This document shows positions 12,948 to 57,486 of a DNA stretch of 64,000 nt, in pieces. A program made the position numbers and the translations under genes. The DNA comes from a virus: positions 16,309-80,308 of IMG/VR virus record IMGVR_UViG_3300025401_000022; one strand, 5' to 3'. The number at the start of each line of letters is the position of its first letter. The first letter of the stretch is position 1. The notes under the pieces are model-generated. The model was not told where the DNA came from. It saw only the letters and a list, made by a program, of their open reading frames with translations, and made no database searches.

Positions 12948-12977
12948 GGGCGGATACGTCAAAAACAGCGTATTAGT
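12948..12977 (+). promoter_or_regulatory. Bipartite promoter GGGCG-N15-GCGTATTAGT upstream of portal
   Basis: GGGCG 12948-52; motif 12968-77. Confidence 0.75.
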
Positions 12978-13026
12978 AAATATAAGGGTTGAGTTAGGCC
13001 CACCAAATTCCAAAATGACATAATCT

Positions 13027-15933
13027 ATGGCACAACCACAATTACCTATCCAAGCTGGCGGCAATTTGCCTGGTCTTGATCGTGAAAATGATATTCAAGA
13101 TGCAAAACAGCAAGACGCTGACATGGAAGAGTACGAAGACATACTGGGTTTAGACTCCGACGAAGTAGAACAAGAAATAATTGAACTGGACGATGGTTCG
13201 GTGGTGGTTAACTACGTCGAAAAATCTAGCCCACTAAAAAATCCAGAGTTCTACGCAAACCTTGCAGAAGTGTTTGATGAGCAGACATTAAATTCACTCT
13301 CCATCGAATACCTTGACTACATTGATGTAGACAAGGAGGCACGCAAGCAAAGAGATAAGCAATATGAAGAAGGACTTCGTAGAACGGGCCTTGGTAAGGA
13401 CGCTCCTGGTGGTGCTACTTTCGACGGCGCTTCTAAAGTTGTTCATCCCGTCATGGCCGAGGCTTGTGTTGACTTCGCAGCTTCCGCCGCCAAAGAGCTA
13501 TTACCATCAGACGGCATCGTCAAGTCCAACATTAAAGGAAACGACGACAAAACCAAAGAAGAAGTCGCAGAACGAAAAGTCGAGTTTCTTAACTGGCAAT
13601 TAACCCAACAAGTCCCTGAGTTCCGCGATGAGATGGAGCAGTTGTTTACTCAATTGCCGCTTGGTGGGTCACAGTACCTTAAATGGATGTACGATGAAGA
13701 ACAAGCTCGCCCAACGTGCGAGTGGGTTCCAATTGACAACATCATTTTACCTTACGCCTCAACAAACTTTTACACAGCGCAGCGCGTTACTGAGCAACAA
13801 GACATCACTGGCGATGAATACCTAAAACGTATTGATGCTGGTCTGTATCGTGACTTGGATAATTTAGAGTATACCTCTGACGCTCCGCTTAATGACCAAA
13901 CTAAGAGTAAAGCAGCAAACGATAAGATTGAAGGTATTGATATGCCTTCTAAAAATATCGACGAGTTACGCAGAATTTATGAAATCACTTGCTTTATGCG
14001 ACTGGAAGCTGATCCGGAAACAGAAGGTAAACGTGCACCATACACTTTGACCATTGACGAATCAACAAACAAGGTATTAGCCTTGTACCGCAACTGGGAT
14101 GCAAATGATGAAAAACGTGAAAAACTGGACTGGATTGTTGAGTTCAAGTTCATCCCTTGGCGTGGTGCTTATGCTATTGGTCTCCCCCATCTTATTGGCG
14201 GTCTCTCTGCTGCTCTCACTGGTGCTCTACGTGCTCTGCTTGACGCTGCTCATATCAACAACAGCCAGACGTTACTTAAACTCAAAACTGGAAGAGTGTC
14301 TGGACAATCTGATCGAATTGAACCAACTCAAGTAGTTGAAGTAGAAGCGGGCGCTGGCGTGACTGACATTCGTCAGATTGCTATGCCAATGCCATTTAAC
14401 CCACCTTCAAGTGTATTGTATGATTTGCTTGGTTGGTTAACACAAGCTGCTAAAGGTGTTGTTACTACAGCTGAAGAGAAGATTGCTGACGCTAATAGCC
14501 AGATGCCAGTAGGCACAACCCAAGCTCTGATTGAGCAGGGTGCCAAGGTATTCTCTAGCATTCACGCACGCTTACACCGCAGCCAAGAAAAATCACTGGC
14601 CATCATCTCACGTATCAACCACTGGTACTTGCAAGAGATGGACAACCAGTCCGGTACTGAAATTGAGGTACGTGACTTTGCGTATAACTCAGATGTTCGC
14701 CCAGTATCCGACCCTAACATTTTTTCTGAGACACAACGTCTTGCTCAGAATCAAGCCCTCCTACAGATGGCAGGCACTGCACCTCCAGGAATGTTTGACA
14801 TGCGCGCAGTATACAAACGCGTACTCAAGCAATTAAAAGTTCCTGAGATGGAAGAAGTACTGCCAAACCCACAAGGCGCCAACGAATCCAATCCGGCCTT
14901 AGAGAACGTCTCTATGACGATGGGACGACCCGCTGCCGCCTACCCCGACCAGGATCATATTGCACACCTTAAGATTCACTTAGAGTATGCACAAAATCCT
15001 GCGTACGGTGGTAACCCTATCATTGGCCCAATCTTTGCGCCGCACGCACTTGAACACATCAAGCAACACTTGACACTGCACTACTTGCAATCTATGCGCT
15101 CTTATGTTGCCCAGGCTTCCGGCGGCGAAGATGTACTCAAACTACACCAAGAACAGCCACTGGATCAAGAAGCCCAACAAGCCTTGGCACTTGCTTCCCA
15201 AATGGTTGGCCAAGATGCACAGCAAACTATTGGACCATTCCTACAGCAAATTACTGGTCTGGCTCAGAAAGTATCACAAGCTCAACAACAGCAACAACAA
15301 ACTATGCTTATGTCTGATCCAACTGCTGCGGCAATTGTTAAGACCCAGACAGCTGAGACTCAACGTAAGTTGCAAGAAGCTCAGGCTAAAATGCAGCTTG
15401 ATACTCAGAGCATGCAACAAGATTATCAAATTAAGATTGCAGAGCTACAACAGAAAGTTCAAGAGTTGCAAGCTAAGTACAGCACGCAGACTAATATTGA
15501 TAACCAACGCAACGCCACAGACATTGCAATGGCTAACATCAATAATGCTGCAAAAGAGCGTGTTGCCATGATTTCAGCTGGTACTCAGATGGATCAGCTA
15601 CAAACAAAACTAGAAGCAGATCAAAATCAATCTGCTATGGAAGCTATCCAAGCCTCTGACCAAGATATTCGTCAGCATGGTTTAGCAATCCAGCAACAAG
15701 CATTCGAGCAACAAGCTCAACAAGTTCAACAACAAATTGAGGCACAACAAGCCGCTCAACAGCATCAACAAGGTTTAGCACAGGCCCAACAGCAGCATGC
15801 AATGGAGATGCAGCAACAGGACCAGCAACACCAACAGGGTTTGGCACAAGCCCAGCAGATGCACGAACAGCAAATAGCCCAAATGCAAGAGCAACAAGCT
15901 CAACAACCACAACAACCCACTGAAGGACAATAA
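13027..15933 (+). CDS. Portal protein with long Q-rich coiled-coil C-terminus
   Basis: Follows TerL; FYANLAE, VVHPVMAEACVDF, GAKVFSSIHARLH motifs typical of this portal type. Confidence 0.85.
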   Translation: MAQPQLPIQAGGNLPGLDRENDIQDAKQQDADMEEYEDILGLDSDEVEQEIIELDDGSVVVNYVEKSSPLKNPEFYANLAEVFDEQTLNSLSIEYLDYIDVDKEARKQRDKQYEEGLRRTGLGKDAPGGATFDGASKVVHPVMAEACVDFAASAAKELLPSDGIVKSNIKGNDDKTKEEVAERKVEFLNWQLTQQVPEFRDEMEQLFTQLPLGGSQYLKWMYDEEQARPTCEWVPIDNIILPYASTNFYTAQRVTEQQDITGDEYLKRIDAGLYRDLDNLEYTSDAPLNDQTKSKAANDKIEGIDMPSKNIDELRRIYEITCFMRLEADPETEGKRAPYTLTIDESTNKVLALYRNWDANDEKREKLDWIVEFKFIPWRGAYAIGLPHLIGGLSAALTGALRALLDAAHINNSQTLLKLKTGRVSGQSDRIEPTQVVEVEAGAGVTDIRQIAMPMPFNPPSSVLYDLLGWLTQAAKGVVTTAEEKIADANSQMPVGTTQALIEQGAKVFSSIHARLHRSQEKSLAIISRINHWYLQEMDNQSGTEIEVRDFAYNSDVRPVSDPNIFSETQRLAQNQALLQMAGTAPPGMFDMRAVYKRVLKQLKVPEMEEVLPNPQGANESNPALENVSMTMGRPAAAYPDQDHIAHLKIHLEYAQNPAYGGNPIIGPIFAPHALEHIKQHLTLHYLQSMRSYVAQASGGEDVLKLHQEQPLDQEAQQALALASQMVGQDAQQTIGPFLQQITGLAQKVSQAQQQQQQTMLMSDPTAAAIVKTQTAETQRKLQEAQAKMQLDTQSMQQDYQIKIAELQQKVQELQAKYSTQTNIDNQRNATDIAMANINNAAKERVAMISAGTQMDQLQTKLEADQNQSAMEAIQASDQDIRQHGLAIQQQAFEQQAQQVQQQIEAQQAAQQHQQGLAQAQQQHAMEMQQQDQQHQQGLAQAQQMHEQQIAQMQEQQAQQPQQPTEGQ

Positions 15934-16160
15934 TGGCAACTAAAAAATCAGCTGAAGACCAATTAGGCTTCCGCAAAGCATACAAAATGACTGGCACCCC
16001 TGGCTACGCTGGCGGTCCTGGTGAGACAACTATCGACAAAGGCGCTTCAGGTTCTAAGCGTGCTAACAATGCAGTACTTAACCAAAACAAAATGGCTAAG
16101 TCACCTAAAGTTGGCCCAGGTAAAAACCTTAACGAAATCGAAGGCGGCAACTTTTATTAA
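15933..16160 (+). CDS. Small basic hypothetical protein
   Basis: TAATG coupling with portal. Confidence 0.65.
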   Translation: MATKKSAEDQLGFRKAYKMTGTPGYAGGPGETTIDKGASGSKRANNAVLNQNKMAKSPKVGPGKNLNEIEGGNFY

Positions 16161-16166
16161 TATTTG

Positions 16167-16196
16167 GGGCGGATTTATCCGCCACAGCGTATTAGT
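16167..16196 (+). promoter_or_regulatory. Bipartite promoter GGGCG-N15-GCGTATTAGT (leaderless ATG at 16203)
   Basis: GGGCG 16167-71; motif 16187-96. Confidence 0.75.
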
Positions 16197-16202
16197 AAAA
16201 GT

Positions 16203-16394
16203 ATGAAAGACTTTATTAGTGAAATTATCGGTCGCGTAAGGACTGAGATACAAAATCATGCGGAAACCGTCACCGCCGGCACTAACATCAACTCGTTTGA
16301 TGATTACAAGCAGTACGTAGGCATTATTCAAGGTCTGCAAATGACTTTAGATATTGTCAACGAAATTCTGACGGAGAATGACGACGAATCGTAA
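16203..16394 (+). CDS. Small head-module protein
   Basis: SFDDYKQYVGIIQGL pattern; lies between portal and GroES. Confidence 0.65.
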   Translation: MKDFISEIIGRVRTEIQNHAETVTAGTNINSFDDYKQYVGIIQGLQMTLDIVNEILTENDDES

Positions 16395-16415
16395 GATTCA
16401 GAAAGGGATTGCCGG

Positions 16416-16856
16416 ATGGCGATTGATTTTAGAGAACAAGACGAACCAGATTTACGAACAGAACTTGAGTGTTTCCCTGACGTAGACCCTGGAGTCGAGA
16501 TTTTAGGTGACCGAGTACTTGTGCAGTTACGCAGGGAAAAGGTAACCAGTAAAGGCGGTATAATCCTAGTGGATGAGACCAGACAAACCTTACGTTTTAA
16601 CGAAACAGTAGCTAAAGTACGAGCAATTGGACCCTTAGCATATAAGAGCCCAGAAGATTTAACCCCTTGGATTGAAGGTCCTTGGTGTCAAGTTGGCGAT
16701 TTAGTTCGCACAATCAAGTACGGTGGTGATCGTTTCGTAGTGCAGCCCGACGATGATGGCGCGCCTGTGGTGTTTATTACATTACAAGCCCGTGAAGTGA
16801 TCTCCAAGATCAAATCATTCGAAGCAGCACAGAAAATGAAAGCGTTTGTAGACTAA
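16416..16856 (+). CDS. groES: Co-chaperonin GroES-like protein
   Basis: ILGDRVLV..TSKGGIILVD..VRAIGP..VGDLV..KYGG. Confidence 0.85.
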   Translation: MAIDFREQDEPDLRTELECFPDVDPGVEILGDRVLVQLRREKVTSKGGIILVDETRQTLRFNETVAKVRAIGPLAYKSPEDLTPWIEGPWCQVGDLVRTIKYGGDRFVVQPDDDGAPVVFITLQAREVISKIKSFEAAQKMKAFVD

Positions 16857-16877
16857 TAACTTTGTAGAAAGTAAAGA

Positions 16878-17849: not shown

Positions 17850-17854
17850 TTATC

Positions 17855-18409: not shown

Positions 18410-18438
18410 CATTCTTCAAAAATAACAAAGGAAAATAA

Positions 18439-19104: not shown

Positions 19105-19125
19105 TTAATACGAAAGGAATAAGCA

Positions 19126-20043
19126 ATGGCAACCCCAATGCGTAGTACCGACTTTCGTGCGGTAGTCGAGCCGATTATCAACGAAGTCTTTGATGGCGTT
19201 TATGAACAACGCGACGACGAGTGGAAAGGATTTGTAGAACAGATCCAAGGTATTCCACGTAACTACCATGAAGAAGTAATGCTTTATGGCATGAACGCAG
19301 CTCCTGCAATGCCTGATGGCACTCCAGTTAGCTACGATCAAGGTGGTACTTTGTACATCACCCGTTTCATCTACCAAATCTATGGCTTGGCATACGCCTT
19401 GACCAAAGTTTTGATGGAAGACGGCGATCACATCCGTATCGGTTCAACTTTCGCTAAGCACTTGGCTCAGTCTATGATTGAAACCAAAGAAACTCTTTGC
19501 GCTAACATCCTTAACTTTGCGTTTACCGCTGGTTATGTTGGTGGCGACGGCGTTACTTTGATCAACACAGCTCACCCAATCGCTAACGGCGGTTCTTACT
19601 CTAACCAATTGTCTACTGCAGCTGCATTGAGCCAAACTTCTGTTGAACAGATGTTGATTCAAATACGTTCTGCTGTTGACAACAACGGTAAGCGTATCCG
19701 CTTGAAAGCAGAGCAGTTAGTTGTTCCTCCAGCACTCGAGTTCCAATCAGAAGTAATTCTGAAGTCAGTTCTCCGTTCTGGTACAGCTGACAACGATTTG
19801 AACCCAATCAAATCAACAGGCATGTTGCCTAAAGGTACACACGTTGTAACACGTTTGTCCTCTAGCAAAGCCTGGTGGATTCAAACTGATGCAGAAAATG
19901 GTCTCATGCTCGTTATGCGTCGTCCAATGGAGAAATCCATGGAAGGCGATTTCGAAACTGATTCTATGCGTTATAAGGCTACTGAGCGTTATGCTACAGG
20001 TTGGCACGATGCGCGTAACATTTTCGGTACAGCCGGTTTGTAA
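19126..20043 (+). CDS. Major capsid protein
   Basis: GGDGVTLINTAHP; LVVPPALE; DFETDSMRYKATERY; strong codon bias; followed by a terminator. Confidence 0.9.
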   Translation: MATPMRSTDFRAVVEPIINEVFDGVYEQRDDEWKGFVEQIQGIPRNYHEEVMLYGMNAAPAMPDGTPVSYDQGGTLYITRFIYQIYGLAYALTKVLMEDGDHIRIGSTFAKHLAQSMIETKETLCANILNFAFTAGYVGGDGVTLINTAHPIANGGSYSNQLSTAAALSQTSVEQMLIQIRSAVDNNGKRIRLKAEQLVVPPALEFQSEVILKSVLRSGTADNDLNPIKSTGMLPKGTHVVTRLSSSKAWWIQTDAENGLMLVMRRPMEKSMEGDFETDSMRYKATERYATGWHDARNIFGTAGL

Positions 20044-20063
20044 TAAACCCCCTCGTAGCACAG

Positions 20064-20090: not shown

Positions 20091-20098
20091 GTTTTTTG

Positions 20099-20128
20099 GG
20101 GCGCTTTGCCACAAAATAGCGTATTAGT
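20099..20128 (+). promoter_or_regulatory. Bipartite promoter GGGCG-N15-GCGTATTAGT
   Basis: GGGCG 20099-103; motif 20119-28. Confidence 0.75.
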
Positions 20129-20134
20129 AAGTAT

Positions 20135-20200
20135 AGGAAGAATCATCCCTTTCTGACCGCCGAACTTCCCGGTGAGACGACTTAGAGACAGCTAGGGATA
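20135..20200 (+). ncRNA. Candidate structured 5' leader (pseudoknot)
   Basis: ATCCCT/AGGGAT and ACCG/CGGT stems; 5' GGAAG complementary to loop CTTCC. Confidence 0.4.
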
Positions 20201-22278: not shown

Positions 22279-22281
22279 TAC

Positions 22282-25635: not shown

Positions 25636-25659
25636 TTTAGGACAGTTTTTAACTTTTTT

Positions 25660-25669
25660 GCGTATTAGT
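25660..25669 (+). promoter_or_regulatory. Phage promoter motif upstream of the glycosyltransferases
   Basis: Exact motif preceded by a T run. Confidence 0.7.
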
Positions 25670-25742
25670 GGTAGTAGATTAAGGTTTTTTTTTTGCATAA
25701 GTAGTATTATAATAGAGGTTCGTATGAACCTAATAGGAAACC

Positions 25743-31582: not shown

Positions 31583-31992
31583 TGTTTCCATTACCTATAT
31601 TTACTTATGTCAAAATTGGATTATTTGCTACACTTTTATTTTTGGCTGGCTATACTGGCTTTAGCTTGGAAGCTGCGCGATTCGATCGCTACAAGGCGAG
31701 CCAACAAGCCCTCACCCAAACGCTCCAGGAAGAACACCAAGCCGCCGCAGACCAAATAAGGAAAGATAAAGATGCTCAAATTGCTACCATCAATAACAGC
31801 CTCGCTGATGCTCTTGTGCAGCTGCGCAGCCGTCCCAGTCGCGCCCAAGACGCCGCAAATGGACAAGGTGGAACTGGGCTGTCCCTTTCTGCCGAGGATG
31901 CAACTTTTCTTGAGCGGGACGCTGCCAGAGCCGACGTGCTCCGAAGCGCCCTCTCAGCCTGCTACGCCCAATACGACTCACTAAGTAAATAA
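31582..31992 (+). CDS. Rz-like i-spanin
   Basis: N-terminal TM plus coiled coil; AARAD..LSAC. Confidence 0.75.
   Translation: MFPLPIFTYVKIGLFATLLFLAGYTGFSLEAARFDRYKASQQALTQTLQEEHQAAADQIRKDKDAQIATINNSLADALVQLRSRPSRAQDAANGQGGTGLSLSAEDATFLERDAARADVLRSALSACYAQYDSLSK
31772..31984 (+). CDS. Embedded Rz1-like o-spanin lipoprotein
   Basis: Signal peptide ending LLCSC lipobox, Pro-rich, nested in Rz in another frame. Confidence 0.7.
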   Translation: MLKLLPSITASLMLLCSCAAVPVAPKTPQMDKVELGCPFLPRMQLFLSGTLPEPTCSEAPSQPATPNTTH

Positions 31993-32002
31993 CCCCCAAT
32001 TT

Positions 32003-32012
32003 GCGTATTAGT
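32003..32012 (+). promoter_or_regulatory. Phage promoter motif upstream of endolysin, inside an inverted repeat
   Basis: TTTGCGT...ACGCAAA arms at 32000-32027. Confidence 0.6.
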
Positions 32013-32040
32013 GTAAACTGACGCAAAGTAAGGAGCAAAA

Positions 32041-32562
32041 ATGAATAAGAAGCTATTTTTGGTAGTATGGTTGTTCACGTTGGTTTGGGTAGTTCAAAAC
32101 CTACAGATAACTAAAACAATAGAACGAGACATTGTGGCAATTACAGAATCAACATTCCAGTTTATTACCAACTTTGAGGGTAAACGCAATAAAGCGTACC
32201 GTGACTCCAAGGGCTTATGGACTATTGGCGTTGGTCACCTCATAAAAGCCGATGAAGAGTTCCTAAAGACCATTACCCTGACAGACTACGACGTACAAGA
32301 GCTATTTAAACGCGATTTAAAGTGGTGTGAAGAGGCTGTAGACGAGTCGGTAAGGGTACCCCTTAACCAGAACCAATACGACGCCCTGTACAGCCTGTGC
32401 TTTAATATTGGCGAGACTAACTTTAAAAAATCCGAAGTAGTCCAGCATATTAACAAAAATGACTTAAATGGTGCGGCAAATGCCTTTTTAAACTGGGCAA
32501 ACCCACCAGTATTAAAAACCCGTAGGAAAAAGGAACGGGAGTTGTTTTTAAGGGCGATTTAG
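32041..32562 (+). CDS. GH24 lysozyme endolysin with N-terminal hydrophobic (SAR/signal) segment
   Basis: FEG..AYRD..GLWTIGVGH (E-x8-D-x5-T); LNQNQYDAL.S..FNIG. Confidence 0.9.
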   Translation: MNKKLFLVVWLFTLVWVVQNLQITKTIERDIVAITESTFQFITNFEGKRNKAYRDSKGLWTIGVGHLIKADEEFLKTITLTDYDVQELFKRDLKWCEEAVDESVRVPLNQNQYDALYSLCFNIGETNFKKSEVVQHINKNDLNGAANAFLNWANPPVLKTRRKKERELFLRAI

Positions 32563-32581
32563 CCCTTTTTAGCGTATTAGT
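32552..32581 (+). promoter_or_regulatory. Bipartite promoter GGGCG-N15-GCGTATTAGT
   Basis: GGGCG 32552-56; motif 32572-81. Confidence 0.75.
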
Positions 32582-32628
32582 AGATATAAGGGCTGATCAC
32601 CCGTTTAACCAATAACCTCGAGGAAACC

Positions 32629-38979: not shown

Positions 38980-39009
38980 GGGCGCAAAGCCCCAAAAACG
39001 CGTATTAGT
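38980..39009 (+). promoter_or_regulatory. Bipartite promoter GGGCG-N15-GCGTATTAGT upstream of the ejection-protein operon
   Basis: GGGCG 38980-84; motif 39000-09. Confidence 0.75.
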
Positions 39010-39035
39010 GTATATAGGAACATCTCGGATATAAA

Positions 39036-46008: not shown

Positions 46009-48998
46009 TGAGCGACGATAACAGATATACCCCGCTACCTAAAGAACTGCATACCCACGACGCTGGGGTAACTCCCCAGCCAGTAGTTACTGAAGGTAAT
46101 GCTGGAAACTATGCCCCAGTACCGATAAACCAAGTACAAACTGGTGGTGAAGACCCGCAAATAAAACATCCTTCTGCCTATTCTGCTAACGATTACGGTT
46201 TAGTTGGAGCTGGTTTGGGTCTTACTGGCGCAGAAACATTAAATACGGCAAAATTAGCTGGTGAGAAATTGGGCATTGTTCCGCAGAGTTTGCAAAGATA
46301 TGCGGATACTCAGATTGGGCACAAGTTTAATCTCCCTTTGGAAGCATTAAAAAAGGAAGCTGGGGTGCCTTATGATTTGGAAACATACCCACTAATTCAA
46401 CGTGCAATTAAAAAGGTATCGGGTTCGGAAGCGGTTCCAGATGCGTACAAAAAAGTATATACTGTTGGCCCAAATGGTAAGCCTGTGTTTAGCCACATGG
46501 AAATTACTCCGGGCACACCTGAAGTCCCTCCGGTTGACCTTAGCAAATATAAAAGAACCCCAATGCAGATTGCAAAACACTTTGGTGAGTTGCCTGTGCG
46601 CGCGGGTGTAGCTGGTTATGATATTGGCCGTGGTCTTAGCGATCCTACTTCCATTGGTGGTTTGGCTGACATCGGCGCAGGTATTTCTGCCGCTGCAGCT
46701 CCGCTTTTAAAAGGTAAAGCAAAAACTATTGCTAACGTAGCTGGTGCATTGCCTATCGTTGGTGGTCTTATTCCAGGTGCTAGCGCTGCTCCATTAAAGC
46801 CACATGAAGTTGCTGGTACTGCTGTTGACTTAGCCACTGGTTGGATGTCACCTACTGAGTTAGGTAAAGGCACAACGCAACCTGAAAATGAAGCATACTA
46901 TCCCGGTATGACTGGTATTTTACATGGCACAACACTTCCACCCGGCCATGCCGAAGGGGGTGACATAAAAAAGTCTCCGGCCAGTATAGCTGGCACCCTA
47001 CAAGAGGTTGGTACAGTACAGGGACCTAGCCTTGCATCAAAGTGGGCTGAGCACTTAGCCTCACTGCCACAGACCACAGAAGACAATCTGCGTCACCAGC
47101 AAGACGTAATGAACCGCGCCATGCCTATCAGCATGAACAACGGCAAACTTGAGTTTGGTCAGGCTGACCCAGAGGCAATGCGCGAGATGACCGACATGGT
47201 ATCTGGTATTGGTGGTATGACTAAGGTTGTCAAAGATCCGATTATCAACGCGCTGTCAAAAGTAATGGAGCCGATTAAAAAATCTGGCGCACAACTGGCA
47301 CGCGAGGCTGAGTACGTTCACGATGTAAGACCAACACACAATTTCTCAGAAGCACCAAAAATTAGTATCCAGGACTTACAGGGTGGATACTTAGTTGGTG
47401 TCCCTGGAGATAGGTCACTGGCAGGGCACTCATTAGTATCTGTAAACGGTGTGCCGCTTAGTAAAGATACTGGATTGTACGGTGGCCCGCGTTATGGTCA
47501 GCGTAAATCTGACCTTGGTGAAGATACATTTTGGGCATCAAAAAGCGGCGCCGCAACTGCGCTGCAAAACAAAGCAAGAAGAGCTGCGGAATTAGCTGGG
47601 GATAATCCAGTGTTTGGTATGTATACTGCCATGGCACCAGACTCTTCTAACTTTGCGTTACACCACACAGAGGCTTTGGTAAATCAATTAGATGCTTTAA
47701 ATCCAAACAAAGCTAAATTACGTGCATTTGATAATATGATTCGCGATAGCTACCCAGAATTTTTGGGTATGAACCATCCGGAAGTAATGAATCAATTTGC
47801 TGCCAATTCTGAATTAAGAAAGCACGTTGCTGACAGACTAAACAAAACTAAAATTGTTGCTCAGTATGATATGCCAAGTGGTGAAGCTACAATTCATGCG
47901 ATTACTGACCCAAGTTTAAGAAACGTAAAGACTGGTTCTACTGGTTATTCTGTTGGTGAATTAAATCCTTTTGCTTCGCTGACATCGGAAACAGAACATC
48001 CGACCTACGACACAAAAATTCCGGGTAAGTTTAAAGGTCAAATGATTGCGCAATTACCTTGGGAACATTATTTCCCAGACGCAGCTAAACAGATTGCTGC
48101 TGACCCAAAACAAGCACCCTATGCTTGGGGCACCTTCAAAATGGGTGACTACAATCAACCTGTAACTCAAGAGTTAGTGGATAAGATTGCACCGATTGAA
48201 GAAATGGTTAAGTCAGCAGCCAAAGACTTTGGGTATGAAAATGCAGTAAAACAAATGGCTGCTCCAACTACCGCTGCAGCACCAGCGGTTAACCGCATCA
48301 ATATGAATTACAAAGATGTTACTAAGCGCATTCCAGAGTTGCAAGAGTCTGCACAACAAATTATGGCGGGTACTGGTTCGCGTGAGGCACATGAGGCTTT
48401 AGTAAATACACATAAGCCTGTATTACCTTTTGACTTTGTTCCTAAGCCAGCAACTCCGGAAGAGGCAATTGGTGCGCTATCAGCAGATAAAAAAGATCTG
48501 TATGGTGTCCCATCCAAAACACTACAAGCCGGTCACCCCGTTGGTTTACGTTTAGATATTCCAGCGTACTCTAATCACGGAGTATGGGTTCCGACTGTGC
48601 ATGAGCAGGCCTCTGGCTTTGGTGCCGGTAAGGCAATCGGGCATGAGAGTGTTGCTTCTGTTTTAAATCCTCAGTTTGGTATGTCAGATAAAGCAGCACT
48701 CAGTATTGCTTCTGGTAAACCAAAAGGCACTATTGCAACTATTAAAGGTAACTGGAATCCAGTTGACCAAGAGCAAGCTGTTGCAAACGCTCAAGAGTAT
48801 TTAAACCATCCTGACTGGCGTCAAGTTGGTATGGACCCAGAGCGTCATGGTTATTTTTATGATCGTGAAACAATGGAGCCAATCACACATGCCGAAGAGG
48901 CGCTGCAGATTGGCCCATTGGTCCTAGCTAAAAAACCTGTTTACGGCAACAAAGAAGATTTTAAGTTTGCTGATGGTGGTTTAGCTCACTTACGGTAA
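46008..48998 (+). CDS. Large putative internal virion protein
   Basis: Last gene of the virion arm; ends FADGGLAHLR. Confidence 0.65.
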   Translation: MSDDNRYTPLPKELHTHDAGVTPQPVVTEGNAGNYAPVPINQVQTGGEDPQIKHPSAYSANDYGLVGAGLGLTGAETLNTAKLAGEKLGIVPQSLQRYADTQIGHKFNLPLEALKKEAGVPYDLETYPLIQRAIKKVSGSEAVPDAYKKVYTVGPNGKPVFSHMEITPGTPEVPPVDLSKYKRTPMQIAKHFGELPVRAGVAGYDIGRGLSDPTSIGGLADIGAGISAAAAPLLKGKAKTIANVAGALPIVGGLIPGASAAPLKPHEVAGTAVDLATGWMSPTELGKGTTQPENEAYYPGMTGILHGTTLPPGHAEGGDIKKSPASIAGTLQEVGTVQGPSLASKWAEHLASLPQTTEDNLRHQQDVMNRAMPISMNNGKLEFGQADPEAMREMTDMVSGIGGMTKVVKDPIINALSKVMEPIKKSGAQLAREAEYVHDVRPTHNFSEAPKISIQDLQGGYLVGVPGDRSLAGHSLVSVNGVPLSKDTGLYGGPRYGQRKSDLGEDTFWASKSGAATALQNKARRAAELAGDNPVFGMYTAMAPDSSNFALHHTEALVNQLDALNPNKAKLRAFDNMIRDSYPEFLGMNHPEVMNQFAANSELRKHVADRLNKTKIVAQYDMPSGEATIHAITDPSLRNVKTGSTGYSVGELNPFASLTSETEHPTYDTKIPGKFKGQMIAQLPWEHYFPDAAKQIAADPKQAPYAWGTFKMGDYNQPVTQELVDKIAPIEEMVKSAAKDFGYENAVKQMAAPTTAAAPAVNRINMNYKDVTKRIPELQESAQQIMAGTGSREAHEALVNTHKPVLPFDFVPKPATPEEAIGALSADKKDLYGVPSKTLQAGHPVGLRLDIPAYSNHGVWVPTVHEQASGFGAGKAIGHESVASVLNPQFGMSDKAALSIASGKPKGTIATIKGNWNPVDQEQAVANAQEYLNHPDWRQVGMDPERHGYFYDRETMEPITHAEEALQIGPLVLAKKPVYGNKEDFKFADGGLAHLR

Positions 48999-50881
48999 CG
49001 CTTACCGTGCCAACCCTCCGCAGCAAGAGGAAAGTCGGGAGCCCACGTTGGTGGCGTCGTCATAATGCGTATGACGTCAGCCAACGCGGACTCCGCGCTT
49101 TGTTCTTCAACTAGGAGTAGTACCTCATCATGGATGCTGTTGATCACCTCGTAACCGGCTTGCTCAAGGTTAAGCATAGCCACGGCAAGACAGTCCCTAG
49201 CGGTACCTTGCACCGCGGACTGAAAAATAGAACTACCAATCAAAGCGTTCCTGCTCCACTGCCGGGTGTAAGTGTTCTGGCTGTGGACAGTGACGCCCAG
49301 CTTCTGGCTACCCCACGGAGTGGTCAGCAGCTCGAGCTCTGGCCTCTGCCAGCAGATAAGCCTGCCGCTGGGTAACTGCATCCACAATGCGTTCTTGGCA
49401 ACCTTCAGTGCAATCTTACTGCCAGCACGGAACGCAGTACCGGGATTGTTTACTGCATCAATCGAGGCAGCTTCGCACGCTGCCCACAACTCCTTCACTC
49501 GCGCATACGAACTGCGGTAACCATCTACTGCGCTCTTGGCTTGCGCCTCACTCAGTTTGACACCCATTCCTTCAGCATACTTAACCAACCCTTTAGCACC
49601 CTGACCAAACATCGCGCCGAGGACAGCTGATTTTGATACCTGGCGTTGATCCTTCGTGACTTCATCATAAGGGACTCGGTATAGGCTTTCTGAAGCGAAC
49701 ACTTTGTACTCATCTAATCCTTTCCGGAACAATTCGACTTTGTCGTTTTGTCCTGCGAGCCAAACCCCAACTCGGTTTTCAATTGAGCTAAAATCCACGT
49801 CAACGAAGGTCTTGCCGTCAGGAGCTTTGATTGCCGATCGAACCAAACTGGATAGCTCTTGCATGGATCCTTGTGCTTGCTCAAATACCAAAGGTATTGC
49901 CTGTTCAATTTGTTCATCGCCGATTGTGGGGCGCGCAATATTTTGGAGATTGAGCCCACCACGCGATGCCCAGCGGCCAGTACTAGCGCCATGATATACC
50001 AGTGTATTCCTAATACGACCATCTCGTTGTATCTCCATCATCTTAGCGTACTTAGCCACGCTAGTTTGGCTTCCTTCTTGGCGTAATTCTAACGCCCGCT
50101 TAATCACCGGGAATATGTTGCATTGCAGCATTTTTGAAACGGTCTCTGCGGTCAAATCGGGCATTGGGGCATGCGGTATCATCCTGTTAATCCATGCCAG
50201 CAATTTAGCCCTCTCAGACGGCTTACAACCGGTCAAGGTGAGGCATTCGTTGTCGATGGCTGCCTGGGCATCATTGACTGCCTTAACAGCGTTGTGGAGC
50301 TCTTCTGGGTCCACAGGAACGCCTCGAAGGTTAATCCGCTGCGTGAGGGTCCAGACATCCTGTTCCTCGGCTGTAAGAGGCCTTAAAACGCTTCCTATGG
50401 CCATCTCTGTGCGTACGTCTCCCATACAATAGTCATACATCTGTTTCAATAGTACAGGATCCTGGTTAAATGTACCATCTTTTTGAGGTTTGCATAATTT
50501 TTGAATAAGTCGTTTACCAATTGGGTCTTTTTGTTCCGACGTGCCTAAAAATATAGCAGCATCTTCCAGGCTCTGTGGCACGTTATTAGCTGCAGCAATT
50601 GCCATAGTATCTATACAACGCTCTAACCTAACATCTAATCCCAGCACATACTTCATAATGTGCCATTCAAACATAACATTCCAGCCTTGAAACCACGTTT
50701 TGTCCTCAAACATAAACATTGGTAGTGCTGTGTTGGGAGTCCACAATCTAATAGGGCCATTGTCAATGGAGTATGCCATACAAATAACCTCTGTGCTGGG
50801 GTCATTAGCATAAATATCTAAGCCATAAGTTGGTAAGTCCACGTTACTGCGAACCTCAAAGTCCAAATTAACTAACATCAC
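48986..50881 (-). CDS. Family A DNA polymerase with 3'-5' exonuclease
   Basis: LDFE exo I; DFSSIENRV motif A; RQVSKSAVLG motif B; IHDEV motif C. Confidence 0.95.
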   Translation of the reverse strand: MMLVNLDFEVRSNVDLPTYGLDIYANDPSTEVICMAYSIDNGPIRLWTPNTALPMFMFEDKTWFQGWNVMFEWHIMKYVLGLDVRLERCIDTMAIAAANNVPQSLEDAAIFLGTSEQKDPIGKRLIQKLCKPQKDGTFNQDPVLLKQMYDYCMGDVRTEMAIGSVLRPLTAEEQDVWTLTQRINLRGVPVDPEELHNAVKAVNDAQAAIDNECLTLTGCKPSERAKLLAWINRMIPHAPMPDLTAETVSKMLQCNIFPVIKRALELRQEGSQTSVAKYAKMMEIQRDGRIRNTLVYHGASTGRWASRGGLNLQNIARPTIGDEQIEQAIPLVFEQAQGSMQELSSLVRSAIKAPDGKTFVDVDFSSIENRVGVWLAGQNDKVELFRKGLDEYKVFASESLYRVPYDEVTKDQRQVSKSAVLGAMFGQGAKGLVKYAEGMGVKLSEAQAKSAVDGYRSSYARVKELWAACEAASIDAVNNPGTAFRAGSKIALKVAKNALWMQLPSGRLICWQRPELELLTTPWGSQKLGVTVHSQNTYTRQWSRNALIGSSIFQSAVQGTARDCLAVAMLNLEQAGYEVINSIHDEVLLLVEEQSAESALADVIRIMTTPPTWAPDFPLAAEGWHGKRYRK

Positions 50882-51333: not shown

Positions 51334-51387
51334 GCACACTCCTAAGGATAAAGCTGACGTATCAGCGGGAACTTCTATTCTACTCTT

Positions 51388-51397
51388 ACTAATACGC
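51388..51397 (-). promoter_or_regulatory. Phage promoter motif upstream of HNH/DNA polymerase
   Basis: Exact motif, fused to the U-tract of a terminator. Confidence 0.75.
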
Positions 51398-51419
51398 AAA
51401 AAAGGGGGCCGAAGCCCCC
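51398..51419 (-). terminator. Intrinsic terminator
   Basis: GGGGGC-TTCG-GCCCCC-TTTTTT. Confidence 0.8.
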
Positions 51420-51443
51420 AAAACTCACCACCATGTGAAATAA

Positions 51444-51590
51444 TTACTTAAGTCTATCTATTACCTGTTGCTTTTCACTGTTTGATAGACGTGTCCAAGC
51501 TGTAATCTCTTCCTTTGTTCGCTGACAGCCGCGGCAAACGCCGAAGAAGTCAAGCGAACATTTTCCGACACAGGGGCTTGCCACATCCAC
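51444..51590 (-). CDS. DUF1289-like small Cys-rich protein (start uncertain)
   Basis: SPCVGKC....CRGCQRT.EEI..W. Confidence 0.75.
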   Translation of the reverse strand: MDVASPCVGKCSLDFFGVCRGCQRTKEEITAWTRLSNSEKQQVIDRLK

Positions 51591-51635
51591 GCAAGATTCC
51601 AATTGAGAAGATTGAGTGGAGGGCAATCCCATACC

Positions 51636-53510: not shown

Positions 53511-53545
53511 TTATTTTCTCTATTGTTATATGGTTGATAAAGGGC

Positions 53546-53576
53546 AAAAAAGCCCGACGCAGTTTCTACGCCGGGC
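53546..53576 (-). terminator. Intrinsic terminator after SSB
   Basis: GCCCGGCGTAG-AAA-CTGCGTCGGGC-TTTTTT. Confidence 0.75.
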
Positions 53577-53597
53577 CGCCCACTACATGGGTACTAC

Positions 53598-54116
53598 TTA
53601 AATTGCGAAGTCTGCTGCTGCGGATGTTGCGCCGCCTAACTTCTCACCATCCTCCAACTTCTGTACGTTGTTCAAACCACAGGCGATGCCCTTAGAACCT
53701 TGTGCATTGTATGGATAGAAAGTGATTGAGGCACGGCCATAGCAACCACTGTAGAACTCATTCATATCCATGATTGGATTGAGGTCAGCATCTACAACAC
53801 CGGGCTTTTGTGCGCTGTTGGCATTGATAAAGTATGAGCCTGCATATGCTGGGTCATCTTTCTCTTCGTCGCCGTCGCGCAAGCCGCCCTTAAGACCCTT
53901 AGGTACTGCGCCACCAAAGTAAGCAGCTGCACCTGCTTTAGTGTCTTCGTACGCCTTGGTAATCTTGGCGATAGTTTCCTTATCAGACTTAGGAATAATG
54001 ATTGATACTGAATACTTCGGTGTGCCGCCCTCAACTGATGCTTTTGGTTGGAACACGTTAGCGTATGAAAAACGAACTTTACCAGTTACGATTTTTACTT
54101 TAGTGGCTTGGGTCAT
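53598..54116 (-). CDS. ssDNA-binding protein (DUF2815 type)
   Basis: VRFSYANVF..KYSVSIIIPKSD..LRDGD..YSGCYGRASI..GLNNVQKL.DGE.LGG. Confidence 0.85.
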   Translation of the reverse strand: MTQATKVKIVTGKVRFSYANVFQPKASVEGGTPKYSVSIIIPKSDKETIAKITKAYEDTKAGAAAYFGGAVPKGLKGGLRDGDEEKDDPAYAGSYFINANSAQKPGVVDADLNPIMDMNEFYSGCYGRASITFYPYNAQGSKGIACGLNNVQKLEDGEKLGGATSAAADFAI

Positions 54117-54137
54117 ACAATTTCCTTATTAACATTA

Positions 54138-54173
54138 GTACTGGTCTTCAATAGGTGCCAGCACGTCTAACCT
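54138..54173 (-). ncRNA. Candidate H-type pseudoknot in the SSB leader
   Basis: AGGU/ACCU interleaved with GUGCUGG/CCAGUAC. Confidence 0.5.
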
Positions 54174-54185
54174 TTTACTGTTGTT

Positions 54186-54195
54186 ACTAATACGC
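54186..54195 (-). promoter_or_regulatory. Phage promoter motif upstream of SSB
   Basis: Exact motif; palindrome TTTCATCATATGAAA at 54213-27; IHF consensus at 54197. Confidence 0.75.
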
Positions 54196-54231
54196 AAATC
54201 AACTACTTAATATTTCATCATATGAAATAGT

Positions 54232-54489
54232 TTAAGCGTCATACAAAATACCTAACTTGCTCATTGCTTGCTTCATTGCTAAGGCCCTTAAGAAGTCTGT
54301 CCGATACTCCGGCTCTTCCAAGATGTCTGGCTCTATGGCAACAATTTCTAGGATTTCGTCAATGGCGTCTCTAATCTGCTGAACGCCTTCTCTGTATCCA
54401 CTGCCTGGTAGCGCGTTAAAATCAAATACAAACTTCTCTATTAACAGGTCCGGTATATCAAACTCCGAACCATAACACGATACCATCAT
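54232..54489 (-). CDS. Hypothetical protein
   Basis: ORF track; AGGAG RBS. Confidence 0.6.
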   Translation of the reverse strand: MMVSCYGSEFDIPDLLIEKFVFDFNALPGSGYREGVQQIRDAIDEILEIVAIEPDILEEPEYRTDFLRALAMKQAMSKLGILYDA

Positions 54490-54497
54490 ACTGTCTC

Positions 54498-54641
54498 CTA
54501 TTTTACTTGGAGTACCAGTCCCACGTTGCCTACGGCATACCCAAGGAACATAATGCCAGTACCCATGCCGCCTTTAATAAACTGGTCTACAGCTACAACA
54601 AAATAGACCAACCCCATTGCTGCTACTAACCAAGTACTCAT
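54498..54641 (-). CDS. Small membrane protein
   Basis: MSTWLVAAMGLVYFVVAVDQF...; read by eye; ATGA coupling. Confidence 0.55.
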   Translation of the reverse strand: MSTWLVAAMGLVYFVVAVDQFIKGGMGTGIMFLGYAVGNVGLVLQVK

Positions 54642-55765
54642 GCAAAGTCCTCCTTCGCATCTTCTTTGGCCTTGACCAGTTTAGGCGAACCTTCTGGCCT
54701 TTGAACCAAGTCCCCCAGCCAAGTCTTAACCTGCTTGTTTAACTTCTCCAGCTGGGCCAATGACTTGAGCTTTGGCTGCTCCCAAATAACTGCTGGGTCC
54801 ATTCCCTTTTCTACTAATACTGTTGCTGCTAATGCGCTATCTGAAATCTTACGGTGCGTTGTTGTAGTTGACAGCTTGTAGCCCGGAGGCACGATGTTTT
54901 GTTCTACCGCTCGAGATAGTGCGTAATCTTCTACGTCACTAACCCAAGTACGCAACTGCTGCGCCTTGACTAAGACTTCGCTGACTTCTTCTTCGTCGAG
55001 GAGGGGCGGGTCTTTGAACTCTTGCTTGGCGAGCTCGGTGTTGAAGTCTGAGCGGGCGCGGCACTGCGCTTTCGCCCTGCAGAACTGGCACCACTCACCG
55101 GGAAGGAACTCACCGCTGCCGGCCCACGCTTTCTTGGCTTTTGGCTTGACGTAGTAGTTTGCCCAGTCGATAAGTTTGGCAATACTTGTCCCGTCAGTGG
55201 AAATGGAATCGAGGCGGGGTTGGTGGATGGTGTAGCTGACTTCTTTGATCTCCGGGTACTCTTCTTTGAACTTGGCGTAAGCTCCGAGCGCGTAGAGGCG
55301 GAGCTGCGTGTTGTCTGTTGCGGAAACGGCCACCCCCTTTCCGAACTTGAGATCACAGATTCGGATTGAATGCTTTGAAAGTATAACGACGTCTGCAGTA
55401 CCAAATCCATCAGGTACCCAGTCAGAGAAGTCCACACGCTGTTCAAAGAGCGGAGTATCGCCTTCGCCAATTTGACTACGAACATATAGAACGTAATTAT
55501 CGACGTGAGCCTCGAAGTCGTCATTGTAGTAGGGTGTGTTTTTAATGATTTCGTATTCTTTTTCATACTCTTCAATTCCAATTTGTCCATAGTAATGTCG
55601 TAGTTTAATCTCCCCAAGAGAGTGGGCCATGGTCCCTTCCTGCGAAAAATCAAAGGAGCCTGTAGCACGTTTTTGTTCGGGGAGCGTTGCCTCTAGTCTA
55701 GCTGACGGTGTGCAGGATAGCCATCGTTTGGATCCTGACGCAGATAGTATGGCATGTGCGGTCAT
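54638..55765 (-). CDS. Cas4-like PD-(D/E)xK exonuclease (DUF2800 type)
   Basis: HAILSASGSKRWLSC; FGTAD; DLKFG; QLRLYALG; CQFCRAKAQC. Confidence 0.88.
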   Translation of the reverse strand: MTAHAILSASGSKRWLSCTPSARLEATLPEQKRATGSFDFSQEGTMAHSLGEIKLRHYYGQIGIEEYEKEYEIIKNTPYYNDDFEAHVDNYVLYVRSQIGEGDTPLFEQRVDFSDWVPDGFGTADVVILSKHSIRICDLKFGKGVAVSATDNTQLRLYALGAYAKFKEEYPEIKEVSYTIHQPRLDSISTDGTSIAKLIDWANYYVKPKAKKAWAGSGEFLPGEWCQFCRAKAQCRARSDFNTELAKQEFKDPPLLDEEEVSEVLVKAQQLRTWVSDVEDYALSRAVEQNIVPPGYKLSTTTTHRKISDSALAATVLVEKGMDPAVIWEQPKLKSLAQLEKLNKQVKTWLGDLVQRPEGSPKLVKAKEDAKEDFA

Positions 55766-55797
55766 ATTATTCTTTCAATTCGTTTTTAGGTATATTT

Positions 55798-55807
55798 ACT
55801 AATACGC
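55798..55807 (-). promoter_or_regulatory. Phage promoter motif upstream of the exonuclease
   Basis: Exact motif preceded by ATTT. Confidence 0.75.
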
Positions 55808-55820
55808 AAATCGGGCACTT

Positions 55821-56225
55821 TTATTCGGAATATTTTTTAATATATTCTTGGGCGGATTGCATAATCTTGATTGAGTCTCTAAAGCCGCCCAGACCACGGT
55901 TGCAATGATTGCAAAGCAGCCCTCGCACCTTGTTGGTGGTGTGGCAGTGGTCTACGTGGGGGGTTTTTTCCGGCACAAAGGGCAGTTTACAGATTTCACA
56001 GGCGTTGTTCTGCGCGTCTTTCATTTGTTGGAATTGCTCTGGCATCACACCATAGTTTCTGGTACGAGCTTTATCCAATTTTTCAATACGATTTTTTTGG
56101 TAATATTCTTTTAGGCAGGCATTGCAATGGAACCGGTATCCGTCTTTCTTTGTTTTGTCTTTCAAAAATTCAGAATATGGCTTTACAATCTTGCACTTAG
56201 AGCACTTCTTCATTGACACCCTCAC
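55821..56225 (-). CDS. Endonuclease VII-family protein with N-terminal Zn finger
   Basis: CEIC..HVDHCH...VRGLLCNHCNRGLG.FRD. Confidence 0.85.
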   Translation of the reverse strand: MRVSMKKCSKCKIVKPYSEFLKDKTKKDGYRFHCNACLKEYYQKNRIEKLDKARTRNYGVMPEQFQQMKDAQNNACEICKLPFVPEKTPHVDHCHTTNKVRGLLCNHCNRGLGGFRDSIKIMQSAQEYIKKYSE

Positions 56226-56291
56226 TGGTAGTTGGTGGGTAGCCAGTGAGTGAGCACTGGCAGGGCCGCTAAGCCGATTCCCCTTTGAATT

Positions 56292-56687
56292 TTACTTACT
56301 TAATTTTTCGATTAGCTGAGAAACTTCCAAGTCAAAATTTACTGCTATTTCTTGTTTGACATTGGCCTTGATTTCTTGACGGTCTTTGTAGTCGTCAGGA
56401 TATTGGCCACGTAGCGCAATCTCTGCGACGCGGCTGTTAAATGCCTTGTTGTCGATGTTGGCGAGCATCATGTTTTCCCAGTACGCTTGGCCGTATGTGG
56501 TGGCCATGGACATGGTCTCGGCAAAGAACTCATCTTCTTGCTTTAGGCGAGCTGCTACGTCTTTGCTAATACCAATTGCGGCGTACATTGCCTTTTGGGA
56601 CGCACCTACTTTACCCAGTTCTAAGATGGTCTCTGCCATCTCAGGGGTAAACTTCTTTTTGTTTGAGGGTGATTTTTTAGCTACCAC
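56292..56687 (-). CDS. terS: Putative terminase small subunit
   Basis: FTPEMAE..G.S....AAIGIS HTH..F.E...AYWE..FNSR..DYKD pattern of TerS-like proteins. Confidence 0.6.
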   Translation of the reverse strand: MVAKKSPSNKKKFTPEMAETILELGKVGASQKAMYAAIGISKDVAARLKQEDEFFAETMSMATTYGQAYWENMMLANIDNKAFNSRVAEIALRGQYPDDYKDRQEIKANVKQEIAVNFDLEVSQLIEKLSK

Positions 56688-56940
56688 ATTTCCACCTTTT
56701 TAGAGCTGCTGCTTTGCGTGTTGGTTTACCGTTTTCGTCCTTCATAGGACCCTTTACGCCTGACATGCGAGCGCAGAATGAATCTTTACGTGCACCACCT
56801 TCGGGTTGTGGCGCCTTTAAATTGCTGCCAGTAGCTGCGTTATACTTAGCACGACCCTTGGCGGTAAGCCCAGCGCCCTTAGACGCAGGCAGTTTTTCAC
56901 CACGACCAATTGCAAGCGATACATTTTTCTTAGTTGCCAT
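56677..56940 (-). CDS. Small basic phage protein
   Basis: GLTAKGRAKYN..NLKAP..RKDSFCARM..RWKC. Confidence 0.7.
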   Translation of the reverse strand: MATKKNVSLAIGRGEKLPASKGAGLTAKGRAKYNAATGSNLKAPQPEGGARKDSFCARMSGVKGPMKDENGKPTRKAAALKRWKCGS

Positions 56941-57092
56941 TATTTTTTCTTAGCTGTCTTCGCAGCTTCTTTAAATTGTTTTGCTGTAGGCGCACCCTTG
57001 GCGCCCGGCTTGCGCATCTTCTCGCCTGAGCCTGCCTTGATGCGTGCCTCTTTAGCGTGAATGTTTGCGTATAAGCCGGGTTTAGTTGCCAT
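56940..57092 (-). CDS. Small basic phage protein
   Basis: MATKPGLYANIHAK..GSGEKMRKPG.KGAPT; read by eye. Confidence 0.65.
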   Translation of the reverse strand: MATKPGLYANIHAKEARIKAGSGEKMRKPGAKGAPTAKQFKEAAKTAKKK

Positions 57093-57101
57093 AATGCTTT
57101 C

Positions 57102-57359
57102 CTAGAATATTACTGAAACGCCTGATAAGCGCTTAGCTACATTGGTTAGTTCTTTGGTTGTTGCGCCGCTGACAAACTCATTGATCTCGATTGCTTTTTC
57201 AATGACTTCGTGCAGGGTTGGGTATGATGGGGCCAGCTCTTCGGTCTTCTTGGTAGTCTTGTTTAAGAGCTCCCAAGCTGCCATGTTGGCCCTGTATTGT
57301 TCTTCCAAGAAAGTCTTGGCTGTGTTAAATACGGAAAAGCGTAGTTCAAATGGATTCAT
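57102..57359 (-). CDS. Hypothetical protein
   Basis: NPFELR..YPT..VIEKA..FVS; AGGAG RBS. Confidence 0.7.
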   Translation of the reverse strand: MNPFELRFSVFNTAKTFLEEQYRANMAAWELLNKTTKKTEELAPSYPTLHEVIEKAIEINEFVSGATTKELTNVAKRLSGVSVIF

Positions 57360-57456
57360 GTAATTCTCCTGTGTGTGATGTGTGTAAATGCCGTCTTTCC
57401 GGCTGTCAGGCTTCTTTACGCCAAACAGAGGCGTCTCACGACGAGCTCCTATATCT

Positions 57457-57486
57457 ACTAATACGCATTTTTAGGATAAAGCGCCC
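57457..57486 (-). promoter_or_regulatory. Bipartite promoter GGGCG-N15-GCGTATTAGT driving the TerS-containing operon
   Basis: CGCCC 57482-86; motif 57457-66. Confidence 0.75.

Follow-up and report, generated by a model that had tools for sequence, protein, structure and literature searches.

The stretch of DNA described here (the window; 64,000 nt) spans positions 16309-80308 in a viral contig of 80,308 bp from an uncultured freshwater phage, and it carries repeated copies of a 10-mer, GCGTATTAGT, around which two promoter architectures can be recognized. Fourteen exact copies are present, with first bases at 10232, 12968, 16187, 20119, 25660, 32003, 32572 and 39000 on the plus strand and at 2838, 51397, 54195, 55807, 57466 and 59158 on the minus strand, and each is co-oriented with the next gene downstream. 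When up to one mismatch is allowed 17 sites are found, versus 3.95 ± 2.06 expected, and the remaining 16.3 kb of the contig contain no copy. The genes that follow the copies include those for the portal, the major capsid protein (MCP) operon, TerL, GT2 glycosyltransferases, lysozyme, a family A DNA polymerase (PolA), a single-stranded DNA-binding protein (SSB), an exonuclease and a D5-type primase, labels which a first-pass annotation of the window had proposed and which we confirm.

For comparison, 245 related loci were collected in four protein-seeded scans of IMG/VR and pooled with the window; the portal proteins of these relatives are 75-96 % identical. Two pools of promoters are used below, one made up of the 216 unique sequences in which the core 10-mer is exact, the other a wider set of 276 unique promoter sequences.

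The two architectures differ in what stands upstream of the core. We refer to promoters with a GGGCG(G) box as class A, and to those with a TG running into the core and no box as class B. As the first-pass annotation had observed, correctly in each particular, GGGCG lies exactly 15 nt upstream of the core in six copies (12968, 16187, 20119, 32572, 39000 and 57466), five of which have no T before the GCG that opens the core (the base there is A, A, A, A, C and T in coordinate order). The remaining eight copies have no GGGCG and are all preceded by T, as TT in seven and as GT at 10232. By our own arithmetic the chance of GGGCG at a fixed offset is approximately 5e-4 (with G at ~0.22 and C at ~0.23), which for six of 14 copies gives p <1e-15, and the opposition between the T and the box among the 14 window copies has a one-sided Fisher p of 6/2002, or 0.003.

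Positions are numbered from the A that lies 6 nt downstream of the 10-mer, a predicted +1 that is deduced from sequence; the core then occupies -16 to -7, the box -36 to -31 (17 bp from TATTAG), and the T and G of class B -17 and -16. This A, at motif position 17, was chosen because it is conserved, in some promoters as part of an ATG, and because an RNA motif begins 6 nt after it. In three window copies (10232, 16187 and 59158) an ATG stands at position 17, placing start codons on the predicted +1 at 10248, 16203 and 59142, and it is kept in 24/27, 24/24 and 36/37 relatives of the TerL-operon, head-operon and sigma4-like promoters respectively, with the six bases between core and ATG varying. 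An A at this position is conserved in nearly all gene groups. The RNA is the DUF2815 motif (RF03084; 54114..54173, minus strand), which scores 66.1 bits in Rfam against a gathering score of 41.2 (E 5e-11), lies in the 5′ leader of the gene for an Enc34-type SSB and begins 6 nt past the predicted +1 of the SSB promoter. The three genes with start codons at 10248, 16203 and 59142 would apparently have leaderless mRNAs. Further inserted genes with the same leaderless layout are found in relatives, for example at L010:7005 and L014:12571.

The window has six class A promoters, and behind them lie virion genes. That of the portal gene (12948..12984, plus strand; gene at 13027-15933) has GGGCGG at -36 to -31, the core at -16 to -7 and a predicted +1 at 12984, and among 23 unique orthologues GGGCG is found in 22 and a T at -17 in none. 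The head-operon promoter (16167..16203, plus strand), with the ATG of a 63-aa first gene at its predicted +1, keeps GGGCG in 24/24 relatives. Beyond the MCP gene (19126-20043) is a third promoter (20099..20135, plus strand), driving a 189-aa gene and a collagen-like fibre operon; GGGCG is present in 9/10 relatives, and a separate terminator lies just upstream. The head-tail operon promoter (32552..32588, plus strand) has GGGCG in 15/17 relatives and GGGCA in 2/17, with no T at -17 in any; its GGGC pairs with a GCCC that is followed by a T-run, and this is a weak terminator after the lysozyme gene (32041-32562). A 126-aa gene and four large internal or ejection proteins follow the promoter at 38980..39016 (plus strand), where two relatives have GGGCA at the same position. 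The last, ahead of a TerS-like operon (57450..57486, minus strand; the TerS label is a weak PHROG match only), contains both GGGCG and TG, and GGGCG is found in 27/27 relatives with a variable spacer.

Class B promoters lie upstream of the D5-type primase-helicase operon (2822..2839, minus strand; gene at 496-2805, minus strand), where the box is present in 0/27 relatives and TG in 25/27; the HNH-PolA operon (51381..51398, minus strand; PolA at 48986-50881, minus strand), where 4/4 PolA-group relatives have TTGCG, with the box in 0/4 and no conserved word at -36; the SSB gene (54179..54196, minus strand; box 0/18, TG 18/18); and the DUF2800 exonuclease gene (55791..55808, minus strand; box 0/23, TG 23/23). 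They also precede a glycosyltransferase cluster (25659..25676, plus strand), with TG in 3/3 relatives, two of which match GGGC at 3 of 4 bases; the lysozyme gene (32002..32019, plus strand), with the box in 0/14 relatives and TG at all 12 exact cores; and a gene for a sigma4-like protein (59142..59159, minus strand) whose ATG is at the predicted +1, with the box in 0/37 relatives and TG in 37/37. The promoter of the TerL operon (10231..10248, plus strand; TerL at 11502-12947), with the ATG of a 102-aa gene at its predicted +1, can be called class B or hybrid: it has AGGCC at -36, and TG together with AGGC at -36 is found in 14/26 relatives.

The promoters for the primase, SSB and Pol, and a presumed early promoter, are each preceded by a palindrome of the type ATTTCA(C)AT..ATG(T)GAAAT (2845-2870, ATTTCATAATGTGAAA, for the primase; 54200-54225, ATTTCATATGATGAAAT, for SSB; ~51425-51440 for Pol; ~9340-9360 for the early promoter; all minus strand). 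It is conserved among relatives and is possibly an operator for a further regulator of the replication subset of class B.

Conservation of the box and the hairpin alternative

The separation of the two architectures holds throughout the relatives. In the exact-core pool 75 sequences have GGGCG, 75/75 of them at 15 nt, and a search of the 45 nt next to the core gave it at no further position; all 141 sequences without GGGCG have a T preceding the core. In the wider pool GGGC[GA] is present at -36 in 116/276, with AG at -17/-16 in 71 of these, TG in 16 and other dinucleotides in 29, and among the 160 box-less promoters 155 have TG. The five without TG comprise three that resemble chance words in coding sequence and two that retain a degenerate box. 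The sole recurrent one-base variant of the core, ACGTATTAGT, changes G1 to A and so loses the G of the TG, and it is accompanied by GGGCGG in 18/18 occurrences. The suggestion made in the first-pass annotation that an extended -10 element compensates for a missing -35 box is supported by this comparison, both by the 155/160 and by the confinement of ACGTATTAGT to promoters with a box. The phage sigma factor described below also retains region 3.0, the reader of extended -10 elements in sigma factors, and may use it here in that way. Each GGGCG position carries 2.0 bits of information, versus 0.1-0.4 across most of the spacer, and since the spacer is nearly free the constancy of the box reflects selection. 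Promoter class goes with the gene and is conserved for each one among the relatives.

The same annotation had offered the alternative that several of the GGGCG sites are hairpin arms, and had pointed to a GGGCT within a terminator at the same spacing in the Pol promoter. On such a view GGGCG would be a mere stem, of a terminator or of a 3′-end stabiliser for the upstream operon, placed near promoters through tight operon packing. RNAfold does pair GGGC in most class A upstream regions, the changes in the partner arm at the head promoter are often G-U compatible, and a T-run follows the hairpin at 32572; these observations count for the hairpin and against a box read as DNA. A structural stem should, however, covary, as that of the Pol promoter does. 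There the GGGCT is located within GGGGGCTTCGGCCCCC-TTTTTT, an intrinsic terminator hairpin and T-run (51404..51419, minus strand) that ends the ribonucleotide reductase operon, and in relatives its stem takes the forms GGGAGCC/GGCTCCC, GGGGCCC/GGGGCCC and GGGGGC/GCCCCC, with minimum free energies of -15.5 to -19.3. Because the stem covaries and the word at -36 changes along with it, this hairpin is a real terminator and its GGGCT is incidental.

The GGGCG arm of class A, in contrast, shows no change among the unique sequences of six gene groups, over 100 in number, and it is the partner that varies, changes side or is absent. GGGCG is the 5′ side of the stem in the head and head-tail promoters and the 3′ side in the portal promoter, where the partner lies within the TerL coding sequence, and it is unpaired in 10/27 folds of the TerS-operon promoter. 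All 23 unique sequences of the head promoter have the same 5′ arm, GGGCGGA, whose 3′ partner exists in about ten versions and shifts register, the distance between box and core remaining fixed throughout; that distance is always 15 nt. A T-run follows the hairpin at only one of the six class A sites in the window. The combination of a covarying G+C stem and a U-run that marks an intrinsic terminator is thus found in the Pol-promoter hairpin and not at the class A boxes, and the comparison of covariation with sequence conservation that the first-pass annotation had proposed separates the two cleanly. Since its partner-arm changes are often G-U compatible, the RNA hairpin at the head promoter probably has a role of its own, although this cannot explain the frozen box.

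A truncated sigma factor and a stand-alone region 4-like protein

A single ORF in the contig matches PF04542. It lies at 4022..4663 on the minus strand and encodes a phage sigma factor with regions 1.2, 2 and 3 (Pfam Sigma70_r1_2, r2 and r3; 29.7 bits for Sigma70_r2 against a cut-off of 24), and its true start is likely near 4600-4585, which would give a protein of 187-192 aa. Its best matches are primary sigmas, and it aligns to SigA residues 90-275 (E 4e-26), ending at the acidic start of region 3.2. PF08281 (region 4) has no match across the whole contig. Region 4 is found in 0/120 of the homologue clusters listed, which range in length from 171 to 207 aa, nearly all of them being 187-198 aa, and the sigmas of the relatives stop at the same place with the same acidic C-terminal tail; the truncation of region 4 is evidently a feature of the whole family. 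In regions 2.3/2.4 the phage protein has KFATFAKRFILR versus KFSTYATWWIRQ in SigA, the Trp dyad and the Gln being lost, and in region 3.0 it has RIPIKVRE versus RIPVHMVE, the Glu being kept and the His replaced by Lys. This Lys, versus Asn, covaries with TGCG versus TTTG in the promoter. The sigma is no more than 39 % identical to any of 50,697 phage records searched with tblastn, and its gene sits in a GC-richer early region that has no copies of the motif. An extracytoplasmic function (group 4) sigma was considered, prompted by a CGT at -10 and a 16-nt spacer, and was rejected because the phage protein carries regions 1.2 and 3.

The class B copy at 59158 precedes a leaderless gene (58831..59142, minus strand) for a stand-alone protein of 103 aa. 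In an AlphaFold2 model the N-terminus (PRLSDEELDPIEQDD) is acidic and disordered and the C-terminal part adopts the fold of a sigma region 4, with block means of the predicted local distance difference test above 90 from about residue 51 to 100. The top match by VIA-align is region 4 of SigR (Z 8.1, root-mean-square deviation 1.9 Å over 57 residues), and for modelled residues 43-103 sigma factors or their region 4 make up the top 19 and 26 of the top 27 structural matches (Z 8.1-5.8), including region 4 of sigmaE solved on -35 DNA (Z 7.2), with LuxR-type domains lower. At the sequence level Sigma70_r4_2 gives a weak match in 10/40 family members (best E 0.0036), and a PDB profile search with the family found no sigma. 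There are 462 homologues, all those listed being small, and three are labelled sigma24-family by JGI; a full HMMER search gave 33 clusters at 50 % identity, all of 129 aa or less except for one fragmentary match (229 aa), and no member fused to a sigma was found among these clusters. The N-terminal PRLSDEExDPxExDD and the helix TEKxWRYH are retained down to ~30 % identity, the putative recognition helix being the most conserved part of the family.

The two genes co-occur on many contigs, and both are present in three complete relatives (G001-G003). Of five contigs with more distant region 4-like genes, four encode in addition a frame of 191-197 aa with Sigma70_r2. Some relatives use alternative -10 words, namely TTTTGCATTATT (in the complete genome G003), TTTGCATTAGT and TTTG[CT]ATAAGT, which still stand 6 nt before a leaderless ATG; in the promoters of virion genes the distance to GGGCG(G) is likewise unchanged. 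Word and sigma subtype go together: sigmas with RIPIK[VT]RE and ..RG[VI]ER are paired with TGCGTATTAGT in 36/36 loci holding at least two copies, and those with R[LV]P[IV]N[IV]ME and ARPFIERGVRR with TTGCATTATT in 6/6 loci. Across these subtypes GGGC at -36 and the helix EKYWRYH are unchanged. A division of labour in which the -10 word is read by the large protein and the box by the small one would produce this pattern, which is confounded by shared descent. The recognition helix and the -35 word were not seen to change together, the distant loci nearly all keeping EKYWRYH and GGGC; a different helix, RKYWHYH, occurs at a single locus (L260), which is too short to include class A promoters.

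Other contents of the contig

Additional genes recognized in the window with Pfam and PHROGs, which also identified those given above, encode two collagen-like fibre proteins, GT2 glycosyltransferases, ribonucleotide reductase, the Enc34-type SSB, the DUF2800 exonuclease, endonuclease VII and an SNF2 helicase. By TerL the nearest cultured phages are the Caulobacter phages RW, GB2A, RLK and KcrB, at 41-42 % identity, and tblastn against the 50,697 phage records gave no match at all to the region 4-like protein and no close relative of the sigma.

Two other promoter types were considered and set aside. A T7-like reading was prompted by a TATAGG-like tail and by a 14-nt identity with a T7 class III promoter, AATACGACTCACTA (~31975-31988, plus strand). 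Since this 14-mer belongs to the 3′-terminal coding sequence of the 136-aa gene that immediately precedes the lysozyme promoter, and is not constant among relatives, it is probably a coincidence. A search for a T7-type RNA polymerase with PF00940 gave no match in the contig, but gave none in control genomes either, and no large ORF had a polymerase match of this kind in Pfam or PHROGs. Host sigma70 promoters were sought in the early region, where a consensus scan found 5 versus 7.5 in shuffled sequences. One TATAAT near 9318 (minus strand) adjoins a degenerate motif copy, TGCGTATATCT, the equivalent position being occupied by an exact GCGTATTAGT in some relatives. Downstream of both is an unusually G+C-rich segment (~9400-9900, minus strand) with many GGTGG-like words and no convincing ORF; a scan at Rfam gathering scores found no family there, and no hammerhead at 8794-8845.

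Outside the window, contig bases 1-13,480 contain a second podovirus-type tail and lysis module (GC 36-43 %; no motif copies) with a tail spike, an Ad3-like adaptor, an Hc3 head closure protein, a DNA-ejection protein, fibres, a spanin and an endolysin. Since the Hc3 protein is missing from three complete relatives (65.5-65.9 kb, with terminal repeats) and the present contig is ~14.6 kb longer than these, the module must be foreign or the result of chimeric assembly.

A candidate split sigma and its relation to known systems

The two conserved architectures, the truncated sigma, the modelled fold of region 4 type and the way in which the -10 word changes with the sigma subtype are direct observations, and the reading that we favour, with a probability of roughly 0.55, is that the phage uses a split sigma factor, in which the large piece alone reads the TG promoters and the small piece adds the reading of a -35 box. 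The 10-mer would be the -16 to -7 part of a phage-specific promoter read by the host core RNA polymerase with the phage sigma, and transcription would most likely start at the A 6 nt past it. In class B, T(-17)G(-16) and the core without a -35 box would behave like an extended -10 promoter, and since such promoters would work in that way the truncated sigma could use them alone; E. coli sigma70 without region 4.2 is reported by Kumar et al. (1993) still to initiate at extended -10 promoters. These promoters would drive the primase, Pol, SSB, exonuclease, lysozyme, glycosyltransferase cluster and TerL operon, together with the 103-aa region 4-like gene. In class A the TG would have been lost and GGGCG(G) at -36 to -31, 17 bp upstream of TATTAG, would be read by the free region 4-like protein seated on the polymerase, so that the portal, head, fibre, head-tail, ejection and TerS operons would fire only after that protein had accumulated. 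That this naturally split, primary-like sigma acts as a developmental timer, with a TG promoter yielding the region 4 subunit which then docks on the polymerase and opens the virion genes through GGGCGG, a new -35 word, is a more tentative proposal, to which we would give somewhat less than an even chance. In place of the absent region 3.2 linker the small protein might use its conserved acidic N-terminus, PRLSDEExDPxExDD.

Several points besides the RNA pairing described above weigh against this reading. We infer the binder of GGGCG, the start site and the timing from sequence, and the host is uncultured. The Foldseek E-values for the small domain are not significant, and because box and helix never vary together the assignment of the box to the small protein depends on co-conservation and fold. 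The related promoters are orthologous, and the counts given above are not independent events. The TG of the window's subtype is at -17/-16 rather than at the canonical -15/-14, and in relatives with the TTTTGCATTATT word T(-15)G(-14) is kept by both classes, so that the either-or rule of TG and box is specific to the window's subtype. Finally, the interpretation offered in the first-pass annotation is upheld only in part: the box-less state of TerL, the glycosyltransferase cluster and lysozyme, and the hybrid form of the TerL-operon promoter, blur any simple split between replication and morphogenesis.

An alternative that we regard as unlikely is that GGGCGG is the site of another phage activator overlapping the -35 region, with the 103-aa protein acting otherwise, for example by occupying the beta-flap and shutting off host sigma70; T4 gp33 likewise binds the flap, and does not read DNA. 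The small protein is connected with the box only through co-conservation, annotation is lacking for many small early ORFs, and T4 gp33/gp55 itself is described as a split sigma whose promoters have a recognizable -10 element and no evident -35 consensus (PMC12867686). The structural matches, however, are to region 4 domains that bind DNA, with chains solved in complex with -35 DNA (2h27 and 6jhe) among them, the strongest conservation in the family falls on the putative recognition helix, and the box is 17 bp from TATTAG, the position expected for region 4. No other candidate was seen, though the unannotated ORFs were not searched exhaustively.

It is similarly improbable, in our judgement, that one holoenzyme reads both classes throughout, with box and TG as interchangeable solutions to promoter strength and no temporal order. 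The window promoter at 57466 and 16/116 box promoters have both elements, the TerL-operon promoter is a hybrid, and the TTTTGCATTATT subtype keeps TG in both classes, as interchangeable elements might. Against this, class is conserved gene by gene in divergent relatives with no drifting, and the region 4-like gene is box-less in 37/37 relatives, which fits a feed-forward order. The hairpin arm we consider very improbable indeed, given a GGGCG that keeps its sequence and its distance from the core while its partner shifts, changes arm or is absent.

If the split-sigma reading is correct, one piece of a sigma factor suffices for one class of promoter and the second unlocks another, a simple temporal switch, and a widespread family of uncultured freshwater phages has a sigma that is assembled stepwise. 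The sharp promoter words, the fixed predicted start and the natural -10 variants matched to sigma subtypes could serve studies of DNA reading by regions 2.4, 3.0 and 4, and may find use as orthogonal parts for synthetic circuits; the analysis also provides promoter and operon maps for an abundant uncultured phage family of fresh waters.

Split sigmas are known in T4 (gp55/gp33), SPO1 (gp34/gp33), Bacillus subtilis (SigO-RsoA) and Tn916 (Sig7-Sig8) (bioRxiv 10.64898/2026.10.01.756105; PMC12867686). Both subunits are reported as required in these systems (bioRxiv 10.64898/2026.10.01.756105), and T4 late promoters have no evident -35 consensus (PMC12867686). The candidate described here resembles them in having sigma functions on two polypeptides, element- or phage-encoded, that would drive the element's own later genes. 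It differs in that its large piece resembles a primary sigma and has regions 1.2, 2 and 3 rather than region 2 alone, in that its two genes are 54 kb apart, and in having two promoter architectures, one of which is expected to need the large piece only. There is also a likeness to the extended -10 (TGn) promoters of the sigma70 family, since the TG extension is found exactly where the -35 box is missing, region 3.0 is kept, and some relatives have the canonical layout T(-15)G(-14)nATTATT; unlike those promoters, the phage has ATTAGT or TATTAG as its -10 word and not TATAAT, with its TG at -17/-16. Promoters consisting of a single word read by a phage sigma, in lytic phages that use the host core polymerase, include those of phiEco32 gp36 and the T4 late TATAAATA. 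Although neither the word nor the proteins are related to these, the phage described here would share with them a strict short word near -10 that marks middle and late genes for the host core polymerase.

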